64,000 nt of DNA from Podospora anserina (Eukaryota). The stretch's first letter is position 1, and the number at the start of each line of letters is the position of its first letter. The notes beneath the pieces are model-generated. The model searched no databases and was not told where the DNA came from. It was given only the letters and a program-made list of their open reading frames with translations. Location of the stretch: positions 5,766,001 to 5,830,000 of the forward strand of contig CM030332.1 in assembly GCA_017654855.1 (NCBI GenBank). Reading direction: 5' to 3'. The translations under genes and the position numbers were made by a program. Positions 28,201 to 59,810 of this stretch are shown in pieces.

Positions 28201-28682
28201 AGTCGTGCGATCTCACCGCCCCAGATTTAGAGACTCCAGATCTGTCGCCGATATATTCAGCTTCGCAGCAGCGCCCACCAATAATTGAAGATCACAACTG
28301 CATATCAAAAGCAGGTCCGGAACCGGTTGCGGCTGTAGAGTCATCTAGTGATTTGGACGACGAGCCTGCTCATGCTCCAGACGGTAAGCACTATACCGTT
28401 GACCGCTTACTGGATAGGTGGAAAGGCTGGTTTTACGTGAAATGGTTTGATGGAAGCTGCAGTTGGGAGCCTCGCAAGAATATCCTAGACCCCGGGCTTA
28501 TCGAGGATCTTGAGAGGAATCATAGAGGGCTTCATTTGGGGGTGGAGGTCATACGGCCCCGTTCGACTAAAGGTCGCAAAACAGAATATCGGGTACATTT
28601 TAAAGGTCGCCCTAAGGAAGAGGATACTTGGGTGGCAGAAAAGTACATGAGCCCCAAGCTGATAGTGAAGAGATTAGTTTAG
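25249..28682 (+). CDS. tyrR: Starship captain: DUF3435 tyrosine recombinase with zinc-finger-like region and C-terminal tandem chromodomain-like units (1049 aa, 6 exons)
   Basis: Introns 25404-25453, 25662-25719, 25987-26049, 26151-26210 and 26555-26607 splice to one open 3150-nt CDS. YR catalytic-type motifs SSARVGE, TIHDFR and MKHAGQKD..TY..HY. Also CFLC...W..HC..H, GYCLFC and CPH...C......F.YHL.DVH. Confidence 0.92.
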
Positions 28683-32652: not shown

Positions 32653-33435
32653 TGTGTTGGATGGTGTGGTTCTCTGCATAAACTTAAGACACTAGGTGTT
32701 GAATAGATGACGAGTAATTAAGGAGATAATTAAGAGCAATGATCGTACAGCGTTTAAGAATTCTTTTCTCAATTCCGTGATTGCATCTACCAGAAGTCAC
32801 CACTTGCCTGTTACTGCCAAGCACATCAAGCTTCGAAGTACATGATCCCTAGACACCTTAAGCGCCTCCCGCTCAACAGGATCGATTCCGCTAAAACAAC
32901 CCATGCTATCGTCCCAAGAAATAACCAAGCTTGTACCAAAGCGTCTAAATTGCGGAGGAGCGACGTGAAAGCACACGCCAATGGCACTTACCGGCCAAAA
33001 GCCAGAAACGGGAGACTGTTACACAACTTCTAACACATAGCGGTCCCCAAGAGTGAGCTGAACGCTGAGCTGGAACAATTGTCATTATGTTGACCGCTCG
33101 GCGTTGGGTATCCAGCAGGGAACTCAACTATCGGCTGTCTGCAGGGCTATAAGTGGCATTGGCTGGATACTGGTAGCCTTGTCTGGTAGGTGTAAGCCGC
33201 TGGTAGCCTCGCGGGAATGGCTGGTAGGTCTGGCGCGGTCGGAACCGGCTGGCGGGACTCACTGGAATCTGCTGGTGCCTCTGAAACCGGCCCAGAGCAA
33301 GGGAACTGCTCTGGTAGCGATGAGGTAATGAGAGGTCGTACTACAGGACGATTCGGGTGCTGGGCACCAAGTTGTCAGACAAGCTGTGGGTGTTGTTGGT
33401 TGATTCCATGAAAGTATCTGTGGGGCTATGGTACA

Positions 33436-33601
33436 TGTAAGATATCTGAGTGTCTGTCTGTTCCGTCACGTGCCAAGCCAACCCTAACCCTGCCAATACC
33501 TAACATGGAGGAACTGGCTGGCGTAGATAGACAGTTCCGCAGTATGCAATAAAAGTCACAATCGTTGGTATCTTAGCCATTGTGTATAGGGGTTCGTCAC
33601 A
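33436..33601 (+). mobile_element. Short LTR-derived remnant related to the solo LTR at 45777-46220
   Basis: Shares GGAGGAACTGGCTGG.GTAGATAGACAGTTCCGCAGTATGCAAT and the terminal TAGGGGTTCGTCACA. No TSD seen, and the left end is uncertain. Confidence 0.65.
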
Positions 33602-34299
33602 TCGCCCGGTCCAGCCCTGAATGGTCCCTTACGTCTCCCCTATCTTCCAAACCGTGACACCGTGCCAATTCTATACTGCTGTTCCGCCACAAAGAAAGTG
33701 GATAGGCACCCCACACTTTTGCATGTGACACCCTGTGGCGTGCTGCCATCTGCAGCTAGCCTTCTCGGCGGTCTGGAAGAGCATGACGTCACCCCTGCCT
33801 GGACCACCTGACCGTCCCTCGGTTTTCTGCTACCACCAAATGTTTCCCCGACAACAAGGCAAAAGGCGCAGGCATCCTCGCCACCACGAATAACGAACAG
33901 CCTTTCCATCACCACTTTTTCCTCGACTTTCTTGATAAACACCGACAACGCTTACCTATCGGTCAGACCTGCGCAGACGATTTCCTGTACGTTAGCCGAA
34001 TCGAGCAGCGGGCGCCAGGCAGGCCGGCTCTGTCAACCTCAGCACGCCCTCTACGCAAGTAACCAAATGCTAATCGAGCGACCATACAGTGAACAGCAGC
34101 ACCAAGCAAGCCCGTCCCGCCAATCCCAGCAGACTCTTACGCAGGCAGCTCGGTTTGGCGATTACCTGTCCAGGTGAGCCAGTCCCGCTAGCCTCAACAA
34201 GCTCTTGCGCAGGCGACCAGACGCTGATTGAGCGATCGTATAGTTTGCTACGCAAAGTCCAGCCGGAATGCCACGCATACCCATCCTCTTTCACCCAAC

Positions 34300-37200
34300 A
34301 TGGATGATCGATCGGGAGGCGAAGGTACAAAGCGACCGGCGCCGAGCCTCTGCCTGATTGATACCGACACGACTATCACGAAGCGCAGGCGGATGACGCT
34401 CGAATACCTACACCAGCGCCCTTTAACGGGCGGAAAATGCGTTAATCTGCGAGACGTCCAAGTGCTACTGCGGCAGGACGGCAGCCGGCAGACGCTGTAC
34501 ACCGACATCGTGGCCCATTGGGCTACGGATTACGCCACGGCGACCACGGACGGCCGGCTCCAGCCAGAGCACATCGATTGCGATAAGATGTTCCGCGATC
34601 TCAAGCTCTATGCCGGTATCCAGGAACACAGTGACGCCGAGGTCAAGAGTCAAGTCCTGGCAGCGTATGTGGAGTCGGCAGCCGGTAGCAGTGACCACGA
34701 AGACTACGTCCGCGATGACGAGAGCCAGGACAGCAGTATCGCCTCAGGTCGGTACGACATCCGAACGGCCGGGGACCTGCGGGTCTTGTTTCTCCACCTC
34801 AGCAAGTGCGCAGCTGCCCGATAGGACGGGAGCCCAGACTTACCCTTGCTGGAACTCGTCGTACGGAATGTTGAAGCAGCGACCACCGAGACAGGCCCCG
34901 CAGCTAACGTCGCCGAGGTCGACAAGGTCGCAGCACCCACCGCAGACAGAGATAAAGAAGAGCCGCCTAGTCCACAGTACGAGCCCGACCAACCACCCAC
35001 GCCTCAAGATATAACCCCCATCTACGCCACAGCTATCAACGAGGACGGTAACGACGTCGCAGAAGATGTCGACAATATATACGGCAATATCAGCGAGAGT
35101 GTCAGCGAGGCGGCCAAGACGGGCTGTGAGTTTAGCGACAATACTCGGACGATAACTCGGTGGTGTTTATATCCGAGCGGTCCCTTGCGTTGACGGATAA
35201 TGACCAAGCATCGCCGGGATTATACGACAGTGAGGCGGACAGTGAATACGGAACCGCCGCCTCCGTAGCGAATTCTCTGCAGAGTCTCAGCGCGGCTCTC
35301 TGCACTATAGATGACACAGAGCGCTGGGAAGCCACGTGCAGGCTCTTCTGCCACAACCAGGCACACACCGCACACGACCAGGGCGCCAAGCTGCTAGGGA
35401 CGAAACGCCGCCTCCGCCCTTACCAGATGGAGGCGGCCTACGAGCTACTACAGCGGAGCTTTGGCGGGCAGTTCGACGGCGGCATCATGGCGCTCGGCAC
35501 CGGGCTGGGAAAGACTGTCGCCAGCCTGGCCGCAATCGCCATCATGAGGCTAGTGGAGCTTAACAATTCCGAGGTCAAACAGGACTGGGACATCGGAGTC
35601 ACCGCCAACCGTCGGCACAACGGCCCGGGGATGATGGGACCTTGCCCATCAGGCAACCCGTGGAGCATTGAGTGCTGCTGCGTAGCCGGCTCGCTCAGTT
35701 CCAAAATCGCCCTCCAGCTGGGACCCGGCCCGTCGCTCATCCTCACCCCGGCCGGCATCACCAGCCAGTTCGCCGGGGAGGCTACCAACTACCTAGAGAA
35801 GCAGGTCCAGCGGCCGGAATCGGACACTTGCATCCCATTTGTGGACACGATTGACGTGAGCGCTAACTCTACCCTCGCACGCGACATCCGAGATGACATC
35901 CTGACGGGCTTTATCGGGGACCAACCAATCTACATGGCACCAAAGAAGGGGGGACCTGCAGGCAGTGCCTGCATTTGTGCAGGGCTCGGGGTCCCAGATG
36001 GGATACACGGCGGGCCAGGTGCAACAGCTCTTCTGCAAGCACCGGCTCCTGGTCGTCAGCAGCAGCCCTCTCTCGCGCTCTTGGCAAAGGGGGAGGACTA
36101 CCGCTCAGGCTTTGCCCAGGCCTACGACTTGCAGCAGCAGCAGAGAAGGGCGGCTAAGCGGTACATTGCTCGGTGGGCAGTGGCGCCGAGGTTTGTTATC
36201 CTGGACGAGTTTCACACCGTCAAGGACAAGGCGACCGTCGTGTACAAAACACTGCAGCAGATCCGGAGCCAGGCCGCTCCCGGCCATAGCTTCAAGCTCG
36301 CGGCGTTAAGCGCGACGCCGATCTCCGTGTCGCTGCAGCGGAGCCTGAGCTCGGTACTGTCGCTCATCTTGCCCGGCGGCGTGGACGCGTTCTGCGGGGC
36401 CGCACAGATTATCGACTCTGCAACAAAGGCCGGCAAGCCCAAGGACGTGGACAAGTACAATGACGCCATCACCACATGCTGCAAGCTGCTCGGGAGCATC
36501 ATGACGCTCCGTACAACGAGGAGCCTCTTCCATGGCAACGTGCTGGTACCGCTCCCCAAGCTCCATTCCAGACAGATCCCCTGCAGATCTGAGAGGGCGC
36601 AGAGGGACGACTTCCGGCGTAGGTTGGGCGAGCTGACGGCGGCATGGAGCCAGGAGATCCGCGCCAGTCTCCGGAACCAAGCGCCCGAGAGCGACGACGC
36701 GCTGCAGGACCGCTTCTTCAACTTCGTCCGTTACAACCCGTCATTCATGCTAACACTCTGGCTTGCATCATTCCCAGGCATTGTTGACCTGCCCGACGAG
36801 CTTTCGTCCAACCCGGGCGAATGGCTGAATAGCGACAAGCTCGGCAATACCGTCGCTACAAGTGAGGGACGCGCCGACCATACCGTCGGCCGGTATATCG
36901 ACATCATCACGGGCGGGAGCGGGAAGATAGAGCAGCTCAGTCAGTGCCTGGGTCGGGCCCGCAAGGACCTCCACCGCAGTTGCGCAGGGGACGACGGCCA
37001 ACCGGCCCCGGTGCTCAAGAAGCACGCCTGCGTCTTCGCCTCGCGGCCGGGCATCGCACTCATCGTCGCTGCATACGCAGACAAGCACTGGGCCTCGGAG
37101 TGGGAGGTCGTCATGGTTCTCTCGGCCACCCCGGAGGGGAAGAAGGCGATCGGCGGAGCCTTCCATGACATCCCGATCGGCAGCGTAGAGAAGCCCACGC

Positions 37201-37490
37201 TCTTTATCGCCACCGTCGGTACGTGCGGTACCGGTCTCGACAGCCTCCAGAAGGCGAACCACGCTGTCCTCTTTGACCTGCCCTTTGTCGAGTCCGAGAG
37301 AAAACAGGCCAGAGGTCGCATCTGGAGGTCTGGACAGCGGTTTCCCTGCTACTGGACCGAACTCTGGGCGGCCGATAGCGACGCTGAGGTCCTGATTAAC
37401 GACCGCCACGAGAGACGTATGGAGGTATTCAACCGGGTCCTGAGTTGCCACAGCGGCGACGGCAGTCGGGCAGGAGGGAGTGAGCAGTGA
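34300..37490 (+). CDS. Divergent SNF2-family (SF2) ATPase/helicase; probably disrupted
   Basis: Motifs GGIMALGTGLGKT (I), SLILTP (Ia), VILDEFH (II), LSATPI (III), SGKI, GTGLD.LQKAN and QARGRIWRSGQ (V/VI). In-frame TAG at 34822 in the N-terminal extension. Possible intron 35126-35208. Apparent compensated frameshift at about 35965-36150. Confidence 0.8.
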
Positions 37491-37797
37491 CGGGTCCGAG
37501 AGGGTGCGTTGGAGGAACGTTTAGGGCCTGTAAGAACTGTCATGAGAGGGATGGCGAAAACTGTCCGGTCGTTCATATAAAGTGGTAGGTTGAGATTGAC
37601 GAGGAGAGTTTATCGGTATTCGATATAAGGAGAACTTTGTTGTAAAGATACTGTTTGAGAATACTTTTGTCGGATTTTTATTAGTTCTCTCTATACTCGG
37701 CTTACGGTAGCCTAACACTGCTCTTGAATAATTCTATATCGTCTGCCGATACCCATCCCCACCCCCTTCCACATCCTCGTCTTCGTTAGACCGATCC

Positions 37798-39270
37798 TCA
37801 GTAACCACTCCGAGTTCTTCCGTATGGTGGTGATGGGACAGATACGCTGTCGGGCTGATAAAGGCGGGATTGCAAAAGGCGTTGAAGGTAGAACAACCGA
37901 AGAGAAAGCGGGTCTAGCATCATTGCTGATCGTGTCCCAAGGTACCTAGCTAAAGCATCACAACACCGAAAGGCGCAGGTGTTACCGGTATAGTCCTGGA
38001 GAGGATGTAAAGTTGCCTCAAGGGGGCTAACTTGAAGTGCATCTTGATAGGCTACTTTGTACTCGTTCAGCATATCCTCGGTCATACCGTAAGCGATAAA
38101 CGTCTTTCGTTTCTTATCAATAATGGCAATAACCCAGTGATTATCGTTAACGTTATATGGCATGACAATACTGACAATACTGCCTCCTGCCGTGGCCTTT
38201 GCCGCCCTCTGAGGTGGGACTCCCAAAGTGTATTCTCCGAACTGTTCTAGTTCCAAACTCAACAGCTCATATAGGATACGTCCCGTAATCATTTTCCCGG
38301 ATTTAAACTGAAGCAAGTCGTCTCGAGGCCAGTGAGAGGCGCCAAACTTGATCAAAGTTGCGAGTTGCTCTCCAATAGTCCCAGAAAGCTCTGGTAAAGT
38401 GAGTCCCATAACCACTTCGTCAGTTTGCAAGGGTGGAGAAGAGATGTGGATCGGGTCGCCCGGATTGTCCCCACACCTCACTCGGTTGGGCGGGCTATCA
38501 GGAGAAAGATCCGTGACTGTGTGGCCGTATTCCCGCTCCGCTGCTATGTCTTGTCCATGATTGCTCGGGCGCATCGAGTCATCCCCGCCGTCGGATCTGG
38601 TACCGCGGATCAACGAATCGCTCGTAGAACCGAGCCGTCCGATGCCTTGCACGTCTGGTCCAGTCGGGACTTTGTTAGGCACCAAGGTAGGTTCACTGTG
38701 CCGACTGGAATTGAGCGAATTTCCTGTTTCCCACGAGTTTGCCGCGCTCGAGTTACTATGTCGAGACTCCTCCTTTCCGTCTCTGTAGTCCGTACGACCA
38801 ACAACCTGTTGTTTGGCTATCAGGCTATTGGGCAAGTGCGGCGGACTGTGCAAGGTGTGTTGGCTACTGGTTTGCCGGGAGCCATTGGGGGGATTGGCAG
38901 GTTCCGGGAGGTCTGCGGTCTCCGAGCAGTGCTGCGCGTTGTTGGAAGGCAAGTTGACGCTGGGTGGATTTACCCTCGATAGTTTTGGACTCGGTCCTAC
39001 AGTCGCATTCTGTGGTGAAGTAGAGGCTGCCGGGGCGTTGCTAGGCAGCGAGGCCCTACGTTCGCTGTGTTGGCTGGCACCGTTGCCTTCGTGTCTCGGC
39101 CGCTTAAGTCTTTCGGCCGCGTTGGGGTCTCCACATCGTTTCTTGCGGGGGTCTCGATTAGGTCTGGGTCGGAGCTGTTCTGTTGTTGTTTCGCCCGGGC
39201 AAAATGCCTGTCTGTTCCTGTCGTGGTTTACCGCCGTCAACTGTGTACCAGGCCCGCCCTGAGAAGCCAT
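37798..39270 (-). CDS. Ulp1/C48-like (SUMO-protease fold) protein with long disordered N-terminus
   Basis: IVMPYNVNDNHWVIAII (catalytic His) and LQDYTGNTCAF (Gln/Cys). The expected Asp position reads AYG, so activity is uncertain. Confidence 0.7.
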   Translation of the reverse strand: MASQGGPGTQLTAVNHDRNRQAFCPGETTTEQLRPRPNRDPRKKRCGDPNAAERLKRPRHEGNGASQHSERRASLPSNAPAASTSPQNATVGPSPKLSRVNPPSVNLPSNNAQHCSETADLPEPANPPNGSRQTSSQHTLHSPPHLPNSLIAKQQVVGRTDYRDGKEESRHSNSSAANSWETGNSLNSSRHSEPTLVPNKVPTGPDVQGIGRLGSTSDSLIRGTRSDGGDDSMRPSNHGQDIAAEREYGHTVTDLSPDSPPNRVRCGDNPGDPIHISSPPLQTDEVVMGLTLPELSGTIGEQLATLIKFGASHWPRDDLLQFKSGKMITGRILYELLSLELEQFGEYTLGVPPQRAAKATAGGSIVSIVMPYNVNDNHWVIAIIDKKRKTFIAYGMTEDMLNEYKVAYQDALQVSPLEATLHPLQDYTGNTCAFRCCDALARYLGTRSAMMLDPLSLRLFYLQRLLQSRLYQPDSVSVPSPPYGRTRSGY

Positions 39271-39684
39271 TGGCAACTCTTCACTTATCCCGTCGCTGTA
39301 TTGCGTGTCGTCTGCCTTGATGCCAGGAGAGGGAGCTGGTAGGCCGTGTGCAGATGTTAGTCTAGAAATATTAATAACATAACGAGTTTCCTAACCTTGG
39401 ACTTAAATAGGGGGAGTTTGTGGTAAGAAATGGATATTCAGCTTCCCATTCTTCAACCTCCTCAACGTTCTCCCTCCTTTCGTGCCGACCTCTTTGCCCA
39501 GGAGTGCAGATAATGGAATTTGTCCGGAGTTTATTTCGAGTTTCGGTATCTCATCTTTAAGTGTATTGTTATTTCTTCTCGATGAAAGTCGCGAGTAAGG
39601 TTTATCGTTCGTGAAGCCAGTTTTTGTGAGTCTGGCTCGCTATAAAGCTATGCACCAGAAACCGCTATTGCGACTTGCTATGCT

Positions 39685-40215
39685 GTGTCCGGTTATCTGG
39701 GGATCGAAAGGGGTCAAAGTCTGGTGCTCCAGAAGCACGTTGAACGAAAACGCCATAACCGAAAAGGGTCAAGCCACGGGCTACCACTGCGGGTTATTCT
39801 AGCTAGAATGACCCGCAGGGTCTTTGCAATCTTCGACTCGCGTGCAACCAATCCCATCCCCGCGGGATGCCCACTTTGCTATCCTGCACAGGAGAATAAA
39901 TGCCAATCCAACCAATCACCTGTGCCACTCAGGACCGGATTTGATAGATATCGACCAACGTCGTTCACTGGCGATATGCTTATCGGCCATATCAACCTCG
40001 TCAAAGTGCAGGCACCGCAGGACTACCAGATTGGATTCCAATCATACATTGAGGCTATGGCGGCTATTGCGCTCGGGAAGGCACCTGCATTGGAAGTGGT
40101 GGAACGGTTGGATCAAGCTGTCCAACTCCGCCAAGCAGCTCTCCGTTTGTTGAACGGCAAACCACCAATCACCTTCAACGCGGAGTCAAAATTTCTCGAT
40201 CGTGGCAGCTTCTAG
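39685..40215 (+). CDS. Hypothetical protein or remnant
   Basis: 176-codon ORF with a helical-looking C-terminal half. No motif recognised and the start is uncertain. Confidence 0.25.
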   Translation: MSGYLGIERGQSLVLQKHVERKRHNRKGSSHGLPLRVILARMTRRVFAIFDSRATNPIPAGCPLCYPAQENKCQSNQSPVPLRTGFDRYRPTSFTGDMLIGHINLVKVQAPQDYQIGFQSYIEAMAAIALGKAPALEVVERLDQAVQLRQAALRLLNGKPPITFNAESKFLDRGSF

Positions 40216-40634
40216 ACCAATGGGACACCCGCCTATGTAGCACAGCCCTCTCTCCTTGAAAGCATCATGAGCTTCCGCTTTGACCTGATGAGGGGGAAGT
40301 CGACAGCCGAAGCTAGCGTATACGTGACTTGAAGCGAGGCTGCATTCAATTCTTTGTGCATTTGCTAGAACAGCTAGGCCGGATATTCCGGCTAGGCTGC
40401 CTAACTTACCCAAAGCGGAGTACTGTAAATATTGAGAGCAGAGGTTACATTCTCAAGCCGGAGGTCGGCCTTGCCTGGCATGCGATTTGACTAAGGGAGA
40501 AGAGCTAAACGACAGATAAGTCCGGCCGCCCGGCTCCTACATAGAAACCCCTCCCACTCCCGTCAGTGCCCATCCATCCTTCCCGAGTGCACCCCCCACG
40601 TCTCACCATCGGCTAATAAACCAGAAGAGGACCG

Positions 40635-41641
40635 ATGGACCGGTGCGTGGAGACAGCAGCCGACTCTATGTCTCTCCTACAATCCACTTGTCCAAGTCTC
40701 TTCTACCTGGCTTGGAGAACCTGCTGCTCCGTCTGATCAGGTGGTCGACGATCTCACTACCCAGATATCCACAACCTCTTTTACCAAGAAACTTCCCAGT
40801 CGGGTCGAGGGAGTCCTTGACCTTGCAGCGTACGACTGGTCCGAGGTTGCCATAGACTCTACTCAAGAGCGTTTGCTTGCTACCCTCACTCATCGTCCCA
40901 CCGACCTCACCCGTGCTCCCAATAATCAAGGCGTTGCCTACAAGAGGCACGTCTGGGTCCGACGTCCTGCTTGTGTTCACGACTCCACCATGCCCAAAGG
41001 AGCTAATGCTTATTACGACATCTCTCTCCCATCAGGCTGCTCTTTGGTACCTCAAAATTTCCCCTCTAGATCCCAACCACGTGGCGGCTCCCCTATACCT
41101 TGAATGGTTCCTCCCTGATCTGACGAAGAAGGGGGGTAAGAAAGAGTGGCAGATGCTTTTCAAGGACATTGGTGCGGACAGGACTGTCACTGATCACATC
41201 TCCAAAGTGTTATCGACCAGTTCAGTTCGGCGGATTTTTGTCGAACGGTCCAATGGGTGGTTCTTCGGGCGCTGGCTCTTCGAAATCGTCAAGCGGGCTC
41301 ATCGCTCAAAAGGTTTATTTGTCCAGGCCACCGGGTTGCTGTAAGTACTGCCCTTCTGATCAGACTCAGGCTGACACTAACATGTGGGATTCAGTCATGC
41401 CAATCCATGTGATGAGTGCGATCAGAGCTATTGCCGGTCTTTCGTGACGTTTCCCGATGGAACCAAGACTGAGGTGATGTGGCCATACTTTGGTTGCGTG
41501 GGAAGAAAAGACTTCGATTGGAAATGTGGGAATTGCTAGCATAAGGGTATCCATTGCTCATGGTCCAGTGTCGATGAGGACAGCTATTACTTCGAGGATC
41601 TCGGCAGTGGTGGATTATCGAAATTGGATCGTGGTTCGTGA
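40635..41641 (+). pseudogene. Cys-cluster (DUF3716-like) protein pseudogene
   Basis: Intron 41341-41394 joins LFVQATGLL to HANPCDEC...WPYFGCV...KCGNC*HKGIHCSW, a DUF3716-like cysteine pattern. TAG at 41537 and upstream frameshifts. Confidence 0.6.
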
Positions 41642-42059
41642 GCCTGATTCCTGGTGGTGAGAAAGTCGATTGGGACCAGGAGTGGGAAGAACAGCGGGCT
41701 GAGTACAAAGCGCTTAGGAAACAGCAGCTGGATAAGAAGAAGGAGAGAAAAGAAAAGGAATAATCTTCCTCTACCTCTGATTAGAGGGAGGAGTATAAAG
41801 AGAAGAGAAGATAGGAAAAAAAGAAATAATAAGAAAAGAAAAAAATAAAACCAGAAAAATATAATACAATGATCTTTACCCCAAACAATCACCTCCCTTA
41901 GTGTCTTTCCTCCCTTTGAGAACAGACAGCTCCAACAGCTCTGTTCTCACAACACAAGCTTCAGTACCCTCTCAAAGAATAGCATGTGGCTGTGTAGCGA
42001 AGAGGCTGCGTTAATCTGGTTAAGTAAGAGACTAGTTAAATATTAGGATCCCAACACCC

Positions 42060-43225
42060 CGCTCAGCGAAGACGAACAAAACCTCCTCCGATCGATCCGC
42101 AAGGAATTCACAGTCGACGACGGTGTCATCTTCCCATCGAAAATTACGAACGATGCCCACGGCTCGTCAAAGCCTTCAAGTCCGTGATGTTCTCACATCG
42201 AGTCCCGAGGTTCTGGGAGAATTGGAGAGCTCTCTGTAGATTCTTCCACGATCAACAAGCTGTCATCGATTACGTTTAGAAGACGTGGATGCCATTCAAG
42301 GATCAGTGGGCTCAGTACGCCATCAAGCGCTACTTCAATTGCCGCGCCCGTACGACCTCACCTTCGGAGTCGACGAACATGAACATCAAGAGCTTCCTGG
42401 TCCACGGAAGAAGCGATCTCTTGCGCTTGTACTTTTGCGTTGAACAAATGGCTTCTGAGCAGCTTCGTTTGTATCGAACGGAAGTCGCCAATCAAGAAGT
42501 CAAAGTCCGCTACGATATGGTGAATCGCGAGTGGTTGGGACCTCTCCCTCGATTGATCTCTCTGAAGGCCTTGGAATTGCTGGTGAAGGAGTACCAGTAT
42601 GCCCTCGGCGGTCGCTCAATCAACAACCAACCTCCGCAAAAGCCACTTCAACCGTGCGATCGCGATTATTGTGTGGCCGAGCAGTACGGGCTTCCTTGCC
42701 GCCACGAGCTACTTCAATTGATGGAAGATGGCGGGAAACCTCTTGAACTGTGGGACATCCACCACGTGTGGCATCTTCATCGACCGGCAAGCTCACAACT
42801 CCCTGTTTACAGTGGTAGAATACAGCTAACCTTCTTGTTCACAGATCGCGGATCCATACTTGAAATTGAAGAACCCTCGAATGGCAGTTCCCAAAGGCAG
42901 ACCGAGGAATGGGCCTGACGGGGTTCCTGTTCGCTCAACACCACGGTCAACGCCGAATCAGCGGCAAACTACTACAACCCCGAAGGCCCCGCGCAAGAAG
43001 AAGACCAAATTACCGAAAATCCACGAGAAAGCGCCTCGCCGGCTTACGAGCAGTATACGGCGCCGGCTCTCCGAATTCGAACAAGACGTGAATGAAGAAC
43101 CCGCTCCTCAAGCCGCTGCCAACGAAACCGCCGAAGTAATCGAGATCTCCGAGAGCTCCAAGCCCTCTTTTCTCGTGATGACCGACTTCTTAACCTCGCA
43201 TTTTGATTTCAGAAGCACCACCTGA
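42060..43225 (+). mobile_element. MULE (Mutator-like) transposase remnant, C-terminal half
   Basis: WMPFKDQWA...YFN...TTSPSES.N..IKSFL, PC....C...YGLPCRH (SWIM-like), IHHVWHL and PKGRP. Frameshifts and stops upstream. Confidence 0.8.
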
Positions 43226-43410
43226 AGGGAGGGCTAACTCCCAGGCCACTATAGCGCGGGATATGGGTTTAGGCGTGGTTGCTTTTTGGTTTATTAATAT
43301 TATTTAACTTGGAAACTATCTCCCGCCCCAATCTAAGAACGCCTCCGGGGCCAACGATATGTTACCTTTCACATGGGAGATGGAACAATACGGCCACAAC
43401 CGCCACACTT

Positions 43411-43572
43411 CAGGATGTTGACATCAGACGGAATTCGTGATGTCCTTGTCGGATTTGGGTATGGGAGTCTGCTGATCCTGGACAGCGACTTTCCTCAACA
43501 ACAAACATATCAAGACTCCCATACCGAAGTCCCACGAGGGCATCGAGGATGCCGTCTGATGTCGACATCCTG
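43411..43572 (+). ncRNA. Candidate hairpin RNA (pre-milRNA/hpRNA-like): 60-nt arms, 42-nt loop
   Basis: 43411-43470 is the reverse complement of 43513-43572 at 50/60 positions, and 6 of the 10 differences form U:G pairs on the + strand. The inverted repeat is certain, whereas RNA function is inference. Confidence 0.45.
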
Positions 43573-44149
43573 TTGTCGCTGGTTACCGAAAGCAGATATA
43601 CTGAGTAACCTACTCCAGGCAAAATAAAATGGCGGCATCGTCCAGCAGCTCAACGAAATCTGGGGACTTTTGTTTCGATTAAGAAGGCGTCCTCCCGCTT
43701 AGGGGGCAGCGCGCCTTTCAAGAGAAGCTGGACATGGCAAGGAGGCGCGGAACATGAGAAGAACCTACCGGCTAGATGTGATGACCAACACAGGTCTGTA
43801 CAGTACTGTACTGTAAGAATCCGGAAGTGTGGTTTCATCTACAATCGCCTAAAGTGGGAGTGAACGTAGGGCATCGACCGTCCTGGTTGGCATCCAATAT
43901 TGGAGCTGGCTTGTAGCTGTACGCAGTGCCCGTGCGGAGACAGTTTGAACATTGAAATCATGGACACTGATTTCTGTCAAATCGTATATGGGGTCCAAAA
44001 AGGTGTCAATTCTGGTGTTGTACGAAGGTGAGTTGCCCGGGTGGCTGGAAAAGGCCGAACCCAGTGGCTCAGGTCCCACTGCCAAGATTCCTTAACAGTG
44101 AGCCCAATTGACTATTTTGACAATTTCGGTCCTACTGCCAAAAACGGCT

Positions 44150-44250
44150 TTTACATTTTGCTTGGCAGCCATATTGCCTCTCCGGCTTGCCTCTTCGCTC
44201 TGCCACAAATTCGAATCGGGCTCTTAGTGGGGATCGGAGGCGGCGTCCTT
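44150..44250 (+). pseudogene. PNP_UDP (purine nucleoside phosphorylase-like, NLR N-terminal) fragment
   Basis: LPQIRIGLLVGIGGGV matches the hallmark F..IR.GL.VGIGGGVP motif. Confidence 0.6.
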
Positions 44251-45776
44251 CCTTCCTGTATCTAACATATTGATGCTGCCTTTCCAATGGGCCTATTTGG
44301 CTCTAAGATTTAAGGCCCTGTCCATGTTAAAGGTCGTGAATCACGGGAGGAGACAGTTCATTTAGATAGCCCGCGGTCCAATAAGATCATGTTTCAGAGG
44401 TTCTGGGGGGATCGTCACAGAAATCCACAGGAATCAGCAACACATCCTTCGTATGGTATGCGCGGCACTATGCCTGGGGCCTGGGGTCGGTTTTGGATCC
44501 CAACATGCGAAATGAGCTCGTATTAACTCTCCGGCAAACTACCTGGTGTCTTCGTTCAAATACGACAATGAAAGCACAGAATGTCAAATTTCTAACCTAT
44601 AATTCTATAAGCACCAAACTGGTCCCCTAACACCTACTTTGATAACAACCCACGCAAGATCATGACGCCGCAAACGGCCAGTCCCGACCCCGGCGTGCAG
44701 CATGTTTGTGCCAGATGTCATAAATCTCTGGAGGAGCGAAAGGCCCCTTATGTTTTGTCGAAATGCTCATGTGTGAGTCTGAAGCACCTTCCTGAGCCAA
44801 GCTACTAACCAGATCCGCTAGGTAATCTGTTCCGAGTGCCGAGTGAGTTATAGGAGATTCTGTGGCCGGCAAAATATTATCTGCAACCTTTACGACCATT
44901 GTCAACACCAAGAGCAAAGTCCATTAATAATTTACGGAACGCAGTGCGCGATCTGCTGGGATCAGAAGCTGGATGACATCCTTGGTCGGCTGATCTGTGG
45001 TATGAAAACCAGTGGCTTCTTTGTTTACTCAGCTAACAATTTTAGGTCATGTATTCCACCCAGGATGCTTGCGTCAAGCCGCCAAATATGGTACTAGGTC
45101 TTGCGCGATGTGCAGGGACAGTTTTCAAGCCAAGGAGATTATGGTCCGGCCCACTGGGAGCGTGCTTAACCAGCAAAATAACACACAGCCTCATAGGCCG
45201 GCGATGGGGAAGGTCCGGGGGAAACTGACTGCCTAAATTTTGCCGCTTTGAAAGATAGTGAGGTGTCTGTATTAAGGTATCTTTTTGCCAAGAGAATGGG
45301 ATGTTGAGCTAGCCGGTACTGCTTCTTTAGGTCCTCGCGTACTAAGGCATATCTAATTTTAAAAACCCTTCAGCCCGCTCGTTATTATCGCCTTTAAAAT
45401 ATTCGTCGCACCATTTAGCGGCCCACCTCTCGATTATTTATAGTGAGTTGGTAAGACAGAGGCTGGCTCCAGACAACTCCTCAGATGTCCGGTACCAAAC
45501 AGCCTTAATGTTTAGGCGTTTGGCCGGATGCAGCTCATACCACAGTTTACGTTGGAGTGATTTGAGCACATCTTTAATCCTCGATTTGCTGCTCAGGCCC
45601 GACTCATGATCACAGTCCCAAACGATCTCTTGGCAGTGCACCCGAGATTGGCATGCTTACGTTATTGCCTTTATAAGTAACGCTCCCAAGGAGGGCAAAT
45701 AGATGTAGGTCTTGGTTTTCGGGTGGTATTTGTTATTTAATACCCAGTTGACCATGTAATCGGCACAGAGTGCCAC

Positions 45777-46220
45777 TGTCACAGTTAACCCAACAACAGG
45801 TCGCGCCACATGTGGGGTGCAGGACGTCCCTAGCCAATCATTAGAGAGGTCAGGAGACAGCCAATCAGGGCTGGACGAAAGTGCTATGGCGCCAAGACAC
45901 ACGAGCACTCTGCAGGATGCAAGATGCTACGAGTGATCAGAGGCATAGCACGACGAGCACTTCGCAGGATGCAATGTGCTATGGGTGATCGGGGCCGTAG
46001 CAGGGCGAGCACCTCATGGTCCCGAGGTCTATATATACGGAGGAACTGGCTGGTGTAGATAGACAGTTCCGCAGTATGCAATTCAAGCTTGTATTCACGA
46101 TATCTAGTGTTTACATTGAGACATCTTGTTGTGCACTGTTTAGCTGCACCGAGCCACGATTATTCAGAAGTGCCTTCGACCAGTATCCCTTTCAGAGGTT
46201 CTGGATAGGGGTTCGTCACA
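45777..46220 (+). mobile_element. Solo LTR (444 bp) with 5-bp target-site duplication GCCAC
   Basis: GCCAC|TGTCACAG...GTTCGTCACA|GCCAC, with TG...CA ends, internal CCAAT boxes and a TATATATA. Confidence 0.9.
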
Positions 46221-46669
46221 GCCACCCAAACGTTTTTGCTACCCTCTTTCGCAATCTCGAACCCTTTCAAGGTATCTATCGCTCACCAATCTTCCTTATC
46301 GGTCCAATCAGACCATTCCTTCCAGTTACGTCGTATCTGAGCGCTCCCGAAAACTAAAACAAGCGGGTGTATGTATATCTCCTTTGGACGAACGGTCTGT
46401 AGAAAGACCGCTGTCTTGTTAAAGGATGTGTAGGAAGTGGTCTGAAGAGGAAGAAATAACCGGCGGTTTTCGCTGACGATCTTATATGTCCCGGAGTTCC
46501 TTAAGAAGGAGAGGATTATTTAGGTCTTTAATTGGGATGGTGTAGCGATACTCCTTGGACGTTTTTGAGGAGGATGGCAGGAGTAGGTCGCTTGCTGAAC
46601 TAGTATTTCCTCTGCTGCTGAGTGGGTGCCGCTGAGATATGGCGTCCACTCCTCGAATGCCTCAATGTT

Positions 46670-46860
46670 CCCTTCGAGGCCTGGTACTACATGATCAACA
46701 CAAGTTGAAAGTGAACGGCTACCCTACCGACCAGAGTCGCACCGCGTACATCCGAATGAGGTTGGCTAGCGAGGCCGCCACGAACCCCATGCCCTATATG
46801 CGTGAGGGCCACCCCGACAGAATCACCACCTCCAACCAGCTTTTGCAGCACCTGAAAAGG
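46670..46860 (+). mobile_element. Ty3/Gypsy gag remnant
   Basis: FEAWYY.../KLKVN..YPTDQSRTAYI..RL..EAA....PY...HP...TTSNQLLQHL resembles fungal Gypsy Gag. Confidence 0.6.
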
Positions 46861-48250
46861 AGAGAGAGGCCAAGATTAACAATATCGTGGCCAACTGTGC
46901 GAGCAAGTCTGACAAGGAGAACGACGCCGCGACCACGCCCGTCACCTAACCCCTCCAGGGTCTGAATCTGTGATGGTCAGTGCACTTGATCAGAAAGAGA
47001 GTGAAGATAGTTATCTGGACAATTATCTGGGCGGAAAATCATTCGTAACGCCATGTACAATCGCTCTCTCTAACCACATGTGATGCTCTTCAAGATTCGG
47101 GAGCAAACGGAAACCTGTTCATGAGTGAACTATTTTCCAAGAGGATAAAGGACAACCTTCATGTCCAGGAAAAAAGAAACTTCGTGCCTAGCCCTGTCAA
47201 GTCCTTCGAGGGAAAGACGGTCCAAGATATCTGTGACAAGGGCTGGAGTGCAGGGCTTGGAACATAGGTTCAATTTCATTTCAATAATCTCCAGTAGCCT
47301 CAAGACCCTTGATGAGGAATCTTGTCATCCCACTGCTCTGCTCTTCCGCTCATGTAGTTATCTCTTTCATTGTAGTCCGTGCTTGTGATGACATTAGGTA
47401 TCTGCCAAGTTCAGCACATCCCTCCGATTATATATAAGCCAATGATGCCCTTGCTGCTAACGCTTGTAGCCTGTTGCTTGTTTCACTTCCCAACGAAGCC
47501 TTTGAGTGCTGTAAGCCACGATAAAGAACATACTGTATAAGTGCTGTATTTCAACAGGTACCTTAAGACAAGAGTCTTATATCGAGCTAGGCTCCTTTAA
47601 AATAAGATCTCGGGGAGCTGCGGTAGGGGTAGCTTGTGTTATACCGTGTTTATGCGAGAACGGACTGTTGCAACGGAACGGAGACTTTCCTTGCGTACGG
47701 GTGCTTGGGGACACTACGTTTCGATATTGATCGTTGGCGGCCTGCAGCCTCTCGGTGAACTGCATGCTTTCTGAAGATCGTGTAGCGCAGTTTGCTCGTG
47801 GTGTCGAGTCGGAGCAAATATTGAAGCCCGGGCGATAGAGTACGTCACCATAGATGTCACCAATAGCGCGGCGAACAGGATAATCGTCCATAACGAACCC
47901 CGAATCAATGAATAATGTAAATACTTTAATATTTTCGCGTAGGTTGCTAGTATTCCGTCATTTTAAATACTGCCTTCCCGGCAGGCGCAGAGAGCCGTTT
48001 CTAGAACCAGTTTGCCTGGGCAGAGAGGCAAGTCACGAGGTGATAGTCTTGATGCCGTCCGTGCCTACTCTAGCAGAAGCGCCTATCATGGCTCCCTTGG
48101 ATTGCATCGTGCACTACTGCAATTATATCCAGTTTGCCGCTCCGGTAAGGGCCCAGGGAACGTGGAGCTAAAAGTAAAGCTAGTAAAATTATATAAGCCT
48201 GGTCTCATTCTCTTAAGACAATGAGACCATCAGCCGGCTATCCAGGAAAA

Positions 48251-49236
48251 ATGACCTCGAAATCGTTGCCACAGCCTACTTACAGTGAATATCAGTTAAA
48301 CTTTCTCCGAAAAAACCCTAGTACCCGGGGGGCCGTAGGTCGTCTTCTCAAGCTCCAAGCGCGATACCATGCTCTCAATCAACAATACCAAGATAATATA
48401 TGGACAGTGGAGCAGTATCATTACGGCCGCTGCCAGGCTATCTTTCGTGATCGTCAGGCAATCATCAACGAAACAATAATCGGCTATCGGCAGAATAGTA
48501 GGACCACTTCATCAGGTTCGGCAGCAGGGTTATCCCGTTTCTGGCTTCGAGCATTGAAGCGTCATCCGACAGTTTCCCAATGGGTGCAGGCCAGTGATGA
48601 ACTAGCTCTCAGTTACCTCTGTGAAGTGCGAATCGAGTTTGTGAACTCGACGGATAGCAAAAGCTTTAGAATCTTATTCGATTTCACCGAGAACCCTTTC
48701 TTCCACAATCCCACCTTAACGAAGCAGTTTATCTATAAGAATGACTCTTCCAAGGACAACATCTACGGTGGGCTGTTGTATAGCAAAGCACCTGGGTGCG
48801 ATATTAACTGGAAACCTGGCCAGGACCTGACAAACGCTTCTAGTAGGTCAAGCCCTTTTCAGAGGACGCTTTTGTTCTGATCTTTACCTATGCAGATCTC
48901 AAGTCCTTCTTCGAGTTCTTTAAATCTACTTCCTTCGAAGTTGAGGAGAGCGAAGGTAATAGTGACGTGGAAGACGATGATAGCGATGGTACCTATGTGG
49001 ATACTGCGTACTCCGACGATGAGGACCAAGAATATGAGGACGATGATTCTGATAGCGACTTAGACTACGTAGACGAGCAGTCGACTTTGTATGAAGACTT
49101 CGAGCTTGGTGAGGAGATTAAGAATAGCCTTGTTCCGTACGCGGTTCACTGGTACACGGGAGAGGCACTTCTTTTTGAGGATGATGAGGGCGAAAATGAA
49201 GATGAAAGTGATATGGAGGAAGATAAAGTTGAATAA
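48251..49236 (+). CDS. NAP1: Nucleosome assembly protein (NAP1-family histone chaperone), divergent paralog; 2 exons
   Basis: FWL.AL..HP, FDF.ENPFF.N..LTK, GCDINWKPG.DLT, SFFEFF, DFELGEEIK..LVP.AV.WYTGEAL and acidic tracts. Intron 48843-48895 gives an open frame. Alternative ATG at 48221. Confidence 0.9.
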
Positions 49237-49668
49237 TTCCAGGGAACTACTCCTGTCCCAAGCTTGCGGGAGGAAGTATATCTTGATGTTAGTGTGGCGA
49301 AATCTGAAAAGGAGTAATGAGACGCCAGGGAAACATCAATATAATAATAACAATAATAATTTATTAACGCTCAGCGGCTAAGCCAAAAGGGAAAATCTTG
49401 CCGATTGAAGCATACATTCCCCAAGATATGCCCTGATCTCATTAAAGCCCATACAAAGTCCATTCTAGATGATGCACTCTCTACGGATTCTCGTGGGTTA
49501 GTAGGATTGTTGGTAGGCTGGCTTGAAGTCGGTTCTTCAAGTGTTCAACGTCCTATCTTCGGCGGCTGTGCCAGCTGTCCGTGGCACGAGGTGATATACC
49601 TGGGCGAGATCATTCGCATACCCCTTATATCGGGCCCGAGCTGCACCATATTGGCTCCGCTCAGGCCG

Positions 49669-49708
49669 ACCTGTCACGGGTAGCACAGGTTGACAGGTTA
49701 ATGACAGT
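49669..49708 (+). repeat. 40-bp inverted repeat, left copy (right copy 56724-56763)
   Basis: ACCTGTCACGGGTAGCACAGGTTGACAGGTTAATGACAGT is 37/40 identical to the reverse complement of 56724-56763. Confidence 0.85.
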
Positions 49709-50589
49709 CAGCTAAGCTACAGTCTTGGTTCTATTCCGTCGGTTACGGGCAGGGATGCGAAAAGCCAAGATGGCCGCCAAAGTGGCGCAGATTAAGCGGT
49801 TGAGTGATGAGCCCAGCACAACCAGCTTAGAAGACGGCGTGAAGAAGGAACCTGTGTAATCGTGTCCTTCACCACCAAGCTGTGACAATAGGCAAACATA
49901 GATTTGAATCGTATTAAACTACAAAGAATTATGTGACTTAGTATTGCTGCAAAGAAAATTCAGTAATAATAGATCCAAAGGACCCATTAACACATTTAAC
50001 AATTAACCAAGCTAGCCCGTTCTGTTCGAGTGTCAGGCATTGTGGAATGATGTAAATCTCTACCATGATAGGCTCCACGCCATACACGCTATAAAAGCGC
50101 AGAGAAGACCTCCTCCATTCCGGACAGATGTACTAGTCGACTTTGAGGGTTTTGGCATTAATGCAGTGAGCAAATATGTTTGAGAAGAATTGTTTGCGAT
50201 GGTTTGAGGTCCATGTAGAGAGTTTATGTGATTAGTGATGGTTGGTACGACAACATTATGGCCAAATAAGCATGTTTTAGTAGTATTTAACAGACCAACT
50301 GACCAGGACTCGAGGCTGGAAGATGGTGCCACCTTGATGGAATCGTTACCGACAGAAGATGGCAGCTGAACCAGAGTATATGTGGACTCTCCACCGCAGA
50401 TCTCAACAGTGACTACAGCAGTGCATGAAGCCATTGATCTAAAAGCTGCTAGAAGTGTTTGGCAACATACCTACGGATCAGGCATTGACCGGTTTAAATA
50501 CTGGCAGTAAGATCTGAACAGCTTCCAAAACTGGCCAGCAACATTTTTCGGCAACTGCCGTCCGATCTCTTGCCTCCTCCGACGATTGC

Positions 50590-50973: not shown

Positions 50974-51230
50974 TATGTACAGTAAACCGAGGTTCCCAAA
51001 CAGTAACACACAAACAAGCCTGAGTCTTGGAATACTCTAGTATAGTGAAAAAAACAAACTTTCTAATTGGTACTGTACAGTATCAACGCTGGCCTCGCTC
51101 ATCGGAAGCCAAGTTAGCGAGAGGCAGCACATAATTTCCAACATCCAGGGATTGACGTACTCCTCCAAATATGGAGCTTAGAGTCATGTTATATAAGGGA
51201 AGCGGCATGAGTGATAAGCGTTAACTAAAC

Positions 51231-52790
51231 ATGGATCAATTCGCTATATTCCGGGAGCTCGCGTCTACTCCACTCTCTTCCCATTCTATTTGTATGCTTC
51301 GAGCTGCAGTGCAAATTATACTGGCCAGGTATCCAAAATGCATAAGCGCAATCGAGGCATCAGATAGCTTTGTCTTTCCATCTCAGCATTCTTTTCATAC
51401 GCCGAGTAACGGTATCCATGTAGACGAAAGGTGGACAGCGTACGCCGATCGTATATCGCAGCGACAAGAACCGGGTGAACATGACGAGATATCTCCGTCA
51501 TTATGGCGAGTTGCCCGAGGAGATTTTCTTGATATGATTGTTGTCAAGTCCTATTTACAGTTGCTGAGAGATAGATATTCTACTATTGAGATCGCCGAAC
51601 CCCGTGAGCTAGGGTTAGACTTCGGACAACTCATAGCCAACACGAGCGGAAAGACCACCGTCTTGCCGATTAAAGATGACGGGCAATGGTTATTCGCGGT
51701 GGTATATCCAGACTGTGTTCATTGGTTTGACAGTAGGCCAAATAGTATCGTCCCCCAATGTATTTCGTCCAACGGGAACAATTTCCCCAGCTGGACCGGC
51801 CCAAAACAGACTCGGCCGGAAGATTCAGGGCTGTTCATGTTGCTAGGAATACGGCTCCTCACTGAAGGCGCTGCCCATTTAAGCCAGCAAGAGGCTAATG
51901 CAGTTATCCCAAGCTTCCGTTCCACAATACTCGTTGAACTCCTCTCCATGATATTAGATCCTGGAGATAGGGAATTTGAAGGCTTGTTACGACGAGAGAA
52001 TGAGCAAGATTCGCTCTTCTTTAACGAGGCAATTTGGTCACCGACGCTCCGAGAACCAACAGTAGAAAGTACGCTAGTAGTTTCGGCACCGGTCGGACCG
52101 GCATCCGCTGCGCCCTATGCGGTACCGCCCGTTTCTAGCTTGCAACCCGTGCCAAAAGCTGTTCTCGCCCGCTCTATCCTTCCGAATGACCGTAAGACTA
52201 TTCTTGAGGTGTTGAGCGGCGCCGTTGCGGCTAGCCGATCTATAAGAATGACTTCAGACACGGCTCTCGCGGTAATCTGGTCATCGATTAAAAATGGCAC
52301 GGTGGTGAGCGAGTTTCATAAGCGGTATAATGGTGTACTATTTTATGAGAAAATGGAGCAGGTAAATCAGATGGATCCCTTATTGCTTGATATCGATCCT
52401 TCTATTTTAAGGGAAATGAAGACCATGCGACCAAGGTTTCGATTCTGGGCGGAATTATGCAGACTTTATCGCGGCCAGGGATTAGCCAGATATACACTGT
52501 TATGTGCTCTGCCAAAGGGATATCGCGTCCCGAATCAGCGTAACCTGCAAGTCACAAAGCTCTCTGAGATTCAATCACGTCTCTCAGACGAGAACGACAC
52601 CCTGCGGCGCAATCTTGCGGAAGCAGAGAACCTCTGTAAAGCAATCCTCCAGTCTTCTCTTCCGGTGGAGCGTTTGATGATCGACTTTTACCTATTTAGA
52701 GCGGGCGAGCCCCTCACAGACGAGTCTTACAATGCCTACTTGAGCTTGAATCCTCATGAAAGGATTCGGATCCCGAGGCAATCATTATAA
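51231..52790 (+). CDS. Ulp1/C48-like pseudo-protease (519 aa, catalytic residues substituted)
   Basis: FLD.IVV.SYLQLL, VLPI....QW..AVV, WFDS and GPKQ....DSGLFML give C48 topology with His->Gln and Cys->Ser. Intact single ORF with TATA-like TATATAA upstream. Confidence 0.7.
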   Translation: MDQFAIFRELASTPLSSHSICMLRAAVQIILARYPKCISAIEASDSFVFPSQHSFHTPSNGIHVDERWTAYADRISQRQEPGEHDEISPSLWRVARGDFLDMIVVKSYLQLLRDRYSTIEIAEPRELGLDFGQLIANTSGKTTVLPIKDDGQWLFAVVYPDCVHWFDSRPNSIVPQCISSNGNNFPSWTGPKQTRPEDSGLFMLLGIRLLTEGAAHLSQQEANAVIPSFRSTILVELLSMILDPGDREFEGLLRRENEQDSLFFNEAIWSPTLREPTVESTLVVSAPVGPASAAPYAVPPVSSLQPVPKAVLARSILPNDRKTILEVLSGAVAASRSIRMTSDTALAVIWSSIKNGTVVSEFHKRYNGVLFYEKMEQVNQMDPLLLDIDPSILREMKTMRPRFRFWAELCRLYRGQGLARYTLLCALPKGYRVPNQRNLQVTKLSEIQSRLSDENDTLRRNLAEAENLCKAILQSSLPVERLMIDFYLFRAGEPLTDESYNAYLSLNPHERIRIPRQSL

Positions 52791-56723: not shown

Positions 56724-56763
56724 ACTGCCATTGACCTGTCAACCTGTGCCACCCGTGACAGGT
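56724..56763 (-). repeat. 40-bp inverted repeat, right copy (left copy 49669-49708)
   Basis: See the left copy. Confidence 0.85.
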
Positions 56764-58910: not shown

Positions 58911-59489
58911 CATAAGGATTAGCTGAGTTCCAGACATCATTTTCTGCTAGGCACTTACAAGCTCTCGTATTCCATCATCAAAGATTAGGCGTGATATGAG
59001 GTAGGATTAGCTAGGTTGGATGACCAGTAAATGGACCACATGTGGATCTGGTCCACCACCACCACACCAGCCACACAACCTTGTTGAGATTACCCCTGAA
59101 TGCTCACACTGGCCACAACAAGACTAATACTGGGTCAATTTCTATGGGAGTCATACCAAAATGTAGCTCATTCACTGTCAGAGTCAGAAATTGCATCTGC
59201 TTCTCGCTTGCGCCTCGTTTGAACACGATGACGTGCGCTGCGCCGCACAGGGTGGGCTGGCTCTTGCTGCTCCACATCCTCCTTGGCTACCACTTCTTCC
59301 TCCACCACCCTCCCTTCACAACTGCCTGAATTGCGTGTGCTGCTTTATCTGCAAGATGTGCTTCCTCAGTCGTTCTTGGTGAGGCTTCTCGCGACATGCC
59401 AACCCAACCAGGAAGCACGGGAAAAGTAGAAGAAAAAAGTTGTTGTAGGGTCCAGAGGCAAAGTACGTTTGCTTTGCTTTTAAGTGGTC

Positions 59490-59810
59490 CATTGAGATGT
59501 GGAAGAAATATTGGCGCATCCTTACAGCTGATTGCACCCACGACATGACCATCCATAAGATGAAGCTTTGCCAGGCCGTTGGTAGGACCTCTGTCAAGTC
59601 TCACTTCCCGATCTTCTACGCCATAGGTACCGAAGAAAGCAACGATTTCATGGACTGGGCAATGGGACTTCTGCGCAACCTGGCCGATGAGAACGATATT
59701 CCACCCCCTCACCTCTACATTACCGATTACTCTGATGCCGAGCGGCACGGCCTTGGCTTGGCCTTCCCTGAGAGTGACCGTTAACTCTGTCAATTCCATA
59801 TTAAGAAAGG
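59490..59810 (+). mobile_element. MULE transposase DDE-domain remnant
   Basis: ILTADCTH....KM.L...VG, E....WA...L, YITD and AFPES..*LCQFHIKK (D, D and CxxH motifs). Confidence 0.78.

Follow-up and report, generated by a model that had tools for sequence, protein, structure and literature searches.

An apparent local inverted duplication with hairpin-RNA potential near a Mutator-like transposase relic in accessory-looking fungal DNA

A hairpin of 162 bases, situated in a 64-kb window (the whole stretch of DNA analysed here, to which all positions refer), appears to be a local inverted duplication with the potential to give a hairpin RNA (hpRNA), and it is not a chance feature. Our leading interpretation, held tentatively and with a little less than even confidence, is that it represents a genuine single-locus inverted duplication of a short module resembling the start of a gene, partly decayed, whose arms have come to differ largely through neutral changes. 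The locus apparently lies in single-copy, non-coding, transposon-rich DNA of an accessory-looking kind.

Results

Architecture and folding of the hairpin

The geometry described in an earlier note on this DNA (60-nt arms, a 42-nt loop and 50 of 60 Watson-Crick pairs) was reproduced at identical coordinates by a repeat search, the arms being 83% complementary (Table 1). Base-by-base comparison resolved the ten differences between the arms into six transitions, at arm positions 9, 25, 28, 33, 37 and 44, and four transversions, at arm positions 22, 27, 40 and 47. At each of the transitions the left arm carries T and the reverse complement of the right arm carries C, so that a U:G pair is formed in RNA of the + strand and an A.C mismatch in RNA of the - strand; the transversions (A.G, G.A, C.C and G.G) are true mismatches on both strands. 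This assignment of six U:G pairs and four true mismatches had also been made in the earlier note and was recovered base by base.

The same note had proposed that both strands be folded. The + strand RNA folded at -100.9 kcal/mol (z -12.6) and the - strand RNA at -79.4 kcal/mol (z -7.7), none of 200 shuffles being as good in either case, which leaves the + strand fold more stable by 21.5 kcal/mol. The stem was kept on folding 535 nt of context. Moreover, an exhaustive ungapped local anti-diagonal scan returned the hairpin as the sole inverted repeat with a score of at least 22 in the window, and the stable stem-loop by which fungal milRNA/hpRNA loci are characterised is present on both strands.

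At the outer end of each arm, spanning the ATG, lies a 12-nt palindrome, GATGTCGACATC (43557-43568 and 43415-43426), which is perfect in the right arm, carries one C-to-T change in the left arm, and could be a protein-binding site. A 21-nt inverted match between 43403-43423 and 43812-43832 was judged to be due to chance, about nine such 9-mer seeds being expected in 2.2 kb.

Table 1. Position of the hairpin, its parts and the neighbouring features in the 64-kb window
Feature	Position	Strand	Basis or remark
Low-copy repeated unit	39561-43152		Also in organism B; similarity to other copies ends at about 43152, 259 nt before the hairpin
MULE (Mutator-like) transposase relic, C-terminal third	42115-42990	+	tblastn with 15 relatives
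Left (5') arm of the inverted repeat	43411-43470	+	Repeat search and base-by-base comparison
Loop/spacer, 42 nt	43471-43512		Small internal stem of 4 bp in the fold; no similarity to the X17 contig
Right (3') arm of the inverted repeat	43513-43572	-	Repeat search and base-by-base comparison
9 nt outside the right arm	43573-43581		Still matched by the X17 contig; similarity ends at 43581

Copy number and distribution of the hairpin locus

The hairpin appears to occupy a single locus and not to belong to a multicopy MITE. No third copy of the arms was detected in the 64-kb window in either orientation, whether by blastn or with an nhmmer profile of both arms (best other E = 12). The flanks CCACACTT and TTGTCGCT, compared as an 8-bp duplication, match at one of eight bases, so the absence of a target-site duplication (TSD), already reported in the earlier note, holds. 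When contigs of four runs were aligned to 33000-50000 at 80% likeness, the interval 41943-44003 was covered without differences by one contig of the source-like run X1 at a depth of 109, the neighbours having depths of about 107-116. In the bin of X1 containing the hairpin the depth was 155 versus 109, and about half of this excess is attributable, by arithmetic, to the arms being overlaid on each other. Hence, the many copies that mark a MITE/TIR pair were found neither in the 64-kb window nor in X1, where the contig has single-copy depth. This depth, together with a repeated unit ending at 43152, argues against both a multicopy MITE and a hairpin encoded by an element.

Part of the interval 43000-44000 was present in 16 runs from five studies, 15 of them labelled organism A and one labelled organism B, a sister organism; eight are possibly the source itself, and no run is recorded as RNA. 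Fourteen of the 16 runs, all of organism A and thus of one species, contained half or more of the words sampled from this interval (13 at 0.97 and one at 1.00), the share in organism B being 0.06. In the organism B run (X16), the depth in the hairpin bin suffices for about 48 nt only. Degenerate patterns of the arms, used in two exact-pattern scans of metagenome contigs, gave no match in either.

Genomic setting

A stop at 43225 closes the stop-to-stop frame of the MULE relic and leaves about 185 nt up to the hairpin. The ORF 42280-42915 (+) had 318 relatives at E <= 1e-3 in a library of representatives, and the Pfam MULE family PF10551 was identified in eight of the ten long relatives scanned; the two exceptions were P0001, to which no family was assigned, and P0052, which contains FAR1 and Tc5 HTH but no MULE domain. 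A tblastn search with 15 relatives located no MULE catalytic domain upstream of the relic, and comparison of the relic ORF with longer proteins yielded 635 candidates, none at E <= 0.001. The adjoining MULE transposase gene is present, but truncated at its 5' end. At 59452-59853 (+) there is a second MULE fragment, which matches the MULE catalytic domain of these relatives (E down to 8e-13); its order relative to the relic at 42115-42990 is wrong for a single gene.

A contig of organism B (X16) is 98.6% identical to the window over 42042-43152 (15 other letters and four gaps in 1,111 bases) and continues beyond 43152 with about 900 nt unlike the window, so that the repeated unit containing the MULE relic ends there. 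The hairpin is located within the single-copy stretch 43153-45473, which is bounded by this unit and by a repeat of very high copy number (45474-46607). It had been described in the earlier note as element-encoded, which is doubtful, since it lies outside the repeated unit as defined by contig depth and by the organism B contig.

Several further repeats surround the locus. A larger low-copy repeated unit extends over 33726-43152, with pieces 95-99% identical in organism B; its portion 33726-37440 is found on source-run contigs at two to three times single-copy depth with 0-3 differences, and 40872-41503 on an X1 contig of about four times single-copy depth. Inside the repeated unit lies a GC-rich (0.59-0.60) SNF2/ResIII/DEAD ORF (35136-37487), and a weak Ulp1/C48-like ORF, under the Pfam cut-off (E 0.002), is located at 37801-39390 (-). 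The very high-copy repeat, which also occurs at 33000-33571 and 43975-44122, was present in all four runs compared and reached a summed contig depth of up to 26,810 versus about 108 for single copy. The hairpin also falls within a 12.5-kb stretch delimited by 49-nt direct repeats (33507-33555 and 46039-46087, 94-98%).

In the window, 79 stop-to-stop frames reach 120 aa or more, and among these a Pfam survey identified HET, multicopper oxidase, NAP, SNF2/ResIII/DEAD, and DUF3435 plus chromodomain frames, a gene content that appears to be of the filamentous ascomycete type. Both the HET-domain ORF (10870-13146, -; E 1.7e-29) and the multicopper oxidase (7939-9336, +; E 2.8e-30) are ordinary for these fungi. 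The DUF3435 ORFs (26155-28679, +, and 25714-26151; E 8.8e-07 and 4e-04), with a C-terminal chromodomain, presumably belong to the tyrosine-recombinase-like proteins known from Cryptons and Starship 'captains'; if such an ORF is a captain, the hairpin could sit within a giant cargo element. Two 40-nt inverted repeats (49669-49708 and 56724-56763), 93% complementary and 7.0 kb apart, enclose a 521-aa ORF (51225-52787) without a Pfam match and constitute a candidate DNA transposon, with no obvious TSD in the flanks. Additionally, in both organism B and run X17, the gene for a nucleosome assembly protein (NAP; 48197-49233, +; E 2.9e-37) had no contig depth across the two bins that cover its beginning (47742-48875) and only trace depth over its last part; the same runs do share transposon copies that are 95-99% identical. 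This NAP gene may be an accessory paralogue and not the housekeeping copy.

A related module in run X17

Run X17 carries the organism A species label, and its kind, 'RNA', is only a guess. One of its contigs matches the window at 43534-43581 only, with 255 or more unmatched letters before and 29 after. The 21 nt ahead of 43534 in this contig align without gaps to the rest of the right arm with 14 of 21 positions identical, none of 500 shuffles scoring as well, and this identity explains why the segment was clipped by the 80% aligner. An exact 8-nt run, AGACTCCC, is common to X17 and the inner end of the arm. Similarity to X17 was found neither past the arm inner end nor past 43581 (296 of 1000 shuffles as good). 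Since the match runs through 43581, the common module measures about 69 nt (43513-43581), and it is found in at least three contexts with different flanks, namely the left arm, the right arm and the X17 contig, all of which stop resembling one another at the same inner end (..GGGAGTCT, +/- 2 nt). Contig depth suggests, by arithmetic, that organism B has about one such module piece and that X1 has one or two further ones. Besides its piece of about 48 nt, X17 covers nothing of the hairpin, and it has no cover over the NAP gene (48.2-49.2 kb), so this run cannot serve as an expression control.

The recurrence of the same inner end in three copies led us to keep facing transposon ends as a serious, if on balance unlikely, rival explanation. 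Under this explanation, each arm would be a 60-nt terminal inverted repeat whose inner end (AGACTCCC...) marks the terminus of an element. An element on the left would have its right end in the left arm and a second one, truncated, would have its left end in the right arm, with 42 nt of DNA separating the two insertions. Two copies of one non-autonomous-family end would lose similarity at one inner end, as the left arm, the right arm and X17 do, and would share additional sequence on the opposite side, where the right arm and X17 have 9 nt more in common; yet neither putative element has a partner TIR in the window. A MULE transposase relic does lie just leftward on the + strand, but the repeated unit to which it belongs ends at 43152 and not at 43470, the left edge of that unit (about 39561) shows no similarity, and the matching inverted copy at the other end that defines a MULE TIR was not found in the window. 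Furthermore, there is no transposase homology rightward, the excess depth of the X1 hairpin bin is small (155 vs 109, with about half of it possibly due to arms overlaid on each other), and facing ends leave unexplained both the ATG and the third-codon-position pattern described below.

Coding character of the arms

On the - strand, the right arm reads ATG (43568-43566) followed by MSTSDGILDALVGLRYGSL, and on the + strand the left arm reads ATG (43415) followed by MLTSDGIRDVLVGFGYGSL, so the layout of the module is a few leader bases, the ATG and 19 codons. The letters of X17 in the ATG frame read ..V-A-F-R-Y-G-S-L, and three of its changed codons are synonymous (GTG/GTT, CGG/CGC and TAT/TAC). 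In this frame, five of the seven differences between X17 and the right arm fall at third codon positions (p = 0.045), compared with five of ten between the left and right arms (p = 0.21) and nine of the 15 sites that vary over the three copies (p = 0.031), the source of this coding-phase signal being one 30-letter loose-end consensus of one contig in a run of guessed kind. Since the 60-nt arms are open in all three frames, openness is uninformative as to coding.

Protein searches yielded one candidate for the 96-aa + strand frame across the hairpin and, against longer proteins, two for the 52-aa - strand ORF, none of them at E <= 10. Pfam searches with these two hairpin ORFs and seven neighbouring short ORFs gave nothing better than E = 0.08, and the two 19-aa peptides, searched against the window by tblastn, matched the arms themselves only. 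When 43226-43700 was compared by blastx with 150 MULE relatives, the best match had E = 0.89; hence, the arms are not recognisable as the N-terminus of those transposases, which are distant (most of them 27-45% identical to the query ORF, with four short fragments at 54-85%).

Taken as a whole, this evidence weakly supports an origin of the arms from the 5' end of a gene. The earlier note had read the arms as plausible coding sequence, and its peptide reading is correct and could be extended. Its further proposal, that they were derived from a target gene, has gained the third-position pattern with X17 (p = 0.045 and 0.031), and neither a parent protein nor a Pfam family was found for it.

Meaning of the G:U bias

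Under symmetric mutation, in which each transition has a chance of 1/2 of giving a wobble pair on a given strand, the wobble compatibility of six of six transitions on the + strand has p = 0.016 one-sided and 0.031 two-sided. All six U's, however, are located in one arm, the 5' arm, a distribution that is not predicted by selection on pairing and is expected from a directional change in one arm. Thus, one directional process acting on one arm would produce both regularities, the G:U pairs and their restriction to a single arm, at once. With four of the ten differences being pair-breaking transversions, transversions are not depleted.

If the C is taken as the older base, the transition sites are CpG in three cases, CpC in two and CpT in one. 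The earlier note had stated that none is in CpA context, which is the case (0 of 6), and had made no mention of the three CpG sites. These do not represent an enrichment, given that five of the 16 C's in the right-arm version are in CpG. The X17 letters allow a single transition site, arm position 44, to be polarised, and X17 agrees there with the left arm, so the change apparently took place in the right arm (A-to-G on the + strand) and a single event of six C-to-T changes in the left arm does not fit cleanly. If position 44 were typical, the differences would be a mix of C-to-T and A-to-G, which would favour either selection on the + strand fold or a transcription-associated asymmetry of the + strand, for which one site is insufficient. 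The G:U bias is weak evidence, and the selection on RNA structure that the earlier note deduced from it is not borne out by six transitions at p = 0.016, U's confined to one arm, four transversions among ten changes and a - strand that still folds at z -7.7.

A functional hairpin-RNA gene (a proto-milRNA or hpRNA locus), in which the 5' end of a gene would have been duplicated in inverted orientation, the + transcript diced, a parent or paralogue silenced in trans and the stem selected, seems to us quite improbable. The + strand is the one on which all six transitions are wobble-compatible (p = 0.016, one-sided), the one with the fold more stable by 21.5 kcal/mol, and the sense strand of the upstream MULE relic, but the transitions number only six, the placement of every U in the 5' arm is not a prediction of pairing selection, four of the ten changes break pairs and the - strand remains a strong hairpin (z -7.7). 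The apparent A-to-G change in the right arm at position 44 implies that the six changes were maybe not one deamination event, and the arms look gene-derived, with a related module in X17, a run guessed to be RNA; organism B, in contrast, shows a piece of about 48 nt of the hairpin locus only and offers no conservation on which such a gene could rest. Nor is there an Rfam match: the 64-kb window contained none at the gathering score and no tRNAs either, and the search at E <= 10 over 43200-43800 returned one chance-level match to a bacterial sRNA, outside the hairpin (E = 7.5).

The dinucleotide preferred by RIP in most fungi is CpA. Canonical RIP was rejected, in agreement with the earlier note, because none of the six transitions is at CpA and the arms, with 60 nt, compare with a described threshold of about 400 bp. 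RIP is described as requiring a repeat longer than about 400 bp with an identity above about 80% (PMC2621366); the identity of the arms (83%) lies above the latter value, their length lies below the former, and the dominance of C:G to T:A changes with a CpN preference was not observed (six transitions and four transversions). As with RIP in that account, one-direction C-to-T differences are found between ascomycete repeat copies, and CpG accounts for half of them, as is the case for some Aspergillus elements; unlike RIP as described there, they occur in arms far under the length threshold, with 40% transversions and none at CpA (PMC2621366).

A footprint of directional mutation could still underlie the G:U bias, in the form of RIP-like or CpG-biased cytosine deamination confined to one strand of one arm, or of transcription-associated strand asymmetry, and we likewise regard this as improbable. 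The six T's of the left arm opposed to C amount to one arm, one strand and one direction, although position 44 polarises the opposite way and transversions make up four of the ten changes. Three of the six sites are CpG, and CpG-to-TpG-biased RIP-like mutation is described for the Aspergillus nidulans MATE and the Microbotryum Ty1 elements, but CpG is not enriched (3 of 6 vs 5 of 16 C's), and RIP, by the same account, would need more than about 400 bp and not 60 nt (PMC2621366). The window, moreover, has a GC content of about 0.50 and no AT-rich RIP signature at this place.

Finally, the geometry of two 60-nt inverted arms around a short core would fit a MITE or foldback element with the outer arm ends as termini (CAGGATG...CATCCTG), whose initial CAGG presumably recalls, loosely, hAT-type termini, but with no TSD of usual length (1/8 flanking bases), one copy only in the window, a contig sequence that is unique in the source run and an X17 match that extends 9 nt beyond the outer end, so that similarity does not stop at the outer ends, this reading is largely refuted and scarcely credible.

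Discussion

A decayed inverted duplication, the reading that we tentatively prefer, would have originated in an accident at the DNA level, such as fold-back break repair or a transposon-associated rearrangement. Such an accident would have duplicated a short gene fragment in inverted orientation, leaving two facing modules of 60-70 nt at a distance of 42 nt, and the ten differences between the arms would then have accrued, mostly by neutral drift. If either strand were transcribed, the near-perfect stem of about 60 bp could become a Dicer substrate and give rise to siRNAs, and those from the 3' arm would be antisense to the start-codon region of related copies of the module. Against the decayed duplication stands the inner end shared by the three copies, which a mobile-element terminus would predict and a random duplication of a gene fragment would not. 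Furthermore, if the hairpin is a neutral relic, the 6/6 G:U pattern remains a coincidence or a mutational bias, and the coding-phase signal (p of about 0.03-0.05) is weak.

Silencing RNAs born by inverted duplication of their own target are well documented in plants, the original of this model reportedly being a 2004 Arabidopsis paper; to our knowledge, the same route is poorly documented in fungi. Inverted duplication of the target gene is the model for young plant MIR/hpRNA genes (PMC3237417). The hairpin analysed here resembles such proto-MIR genes in the apparent local inverted duplication of a short fragment, the near-perfect foldback and arms that may resemble a gene elsewhere, and differs from them in that the organism is a fungus, the candidate is known from its sequence alone, and the arms correspond to a start codon and not to an internal target site. 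A young fungal hairpin-RNA gene in the style of plant MIR genes, derived from the first 60-70 nt of a gene, with its + strand stem selected and its parent family silenced in trans, would be more doubtful still than the functional gene considered above.

In maize, Mu killer consists of an inverted duplication of about 4 kb of a Mutator element (TIRA and part of mudrA), and read-through from a flanking gene is proposed to give a hairpin RNA and siRNA production (PMC3440606). Both loci share an inverted duplication associated with a Mutator-family element. In contrast to Mu killer, the arms here measure 60 nt, lack similarity to 150 MULE relatives (best E = 0.89) and lie outside the repeated unit.

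Fungal mi/milRNA loci were defined by Johnson et al. 2022 (PMC9757828) by small-RNA abundance and at least 80% strandedness, and ranked by replication and conservation, with overlap with transposons or coding sequence as an exclusion criterion; most reported fungal milRNA loci fail basic criteria, according to the same paper. Those loci and the present hairpin are alike in having a stem-loop close to genes and transposons, but the former are defined by small-RNA reads and the latter comes from DNA letters. A hairpin miRNA gene derived from a MITE is exemplified by hsa-mir-548, from Made1 (PMC1784062), to which the present locus is similar in its two inverted arms with a short core forming a near-perfect hairpin; unlike that example, it shows no multicopy family, no TSD, and outer ends beyond which similarity continues.

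The hairpin is a well-formed palindrome of the kind that transposon-rich regions yield as by-products, and the G:U argument is by itself not sufficient to give it a higher standing. Its significance is modest unless small-RNA data reveal processing of the hairpin. If it were transcribed and diced, however, it would provide a clean fungal case of a silencing RNA that arose from its own target by inverted duplication, and such an RNA would be located in accessory DNA in which close relatives are unlike one another.
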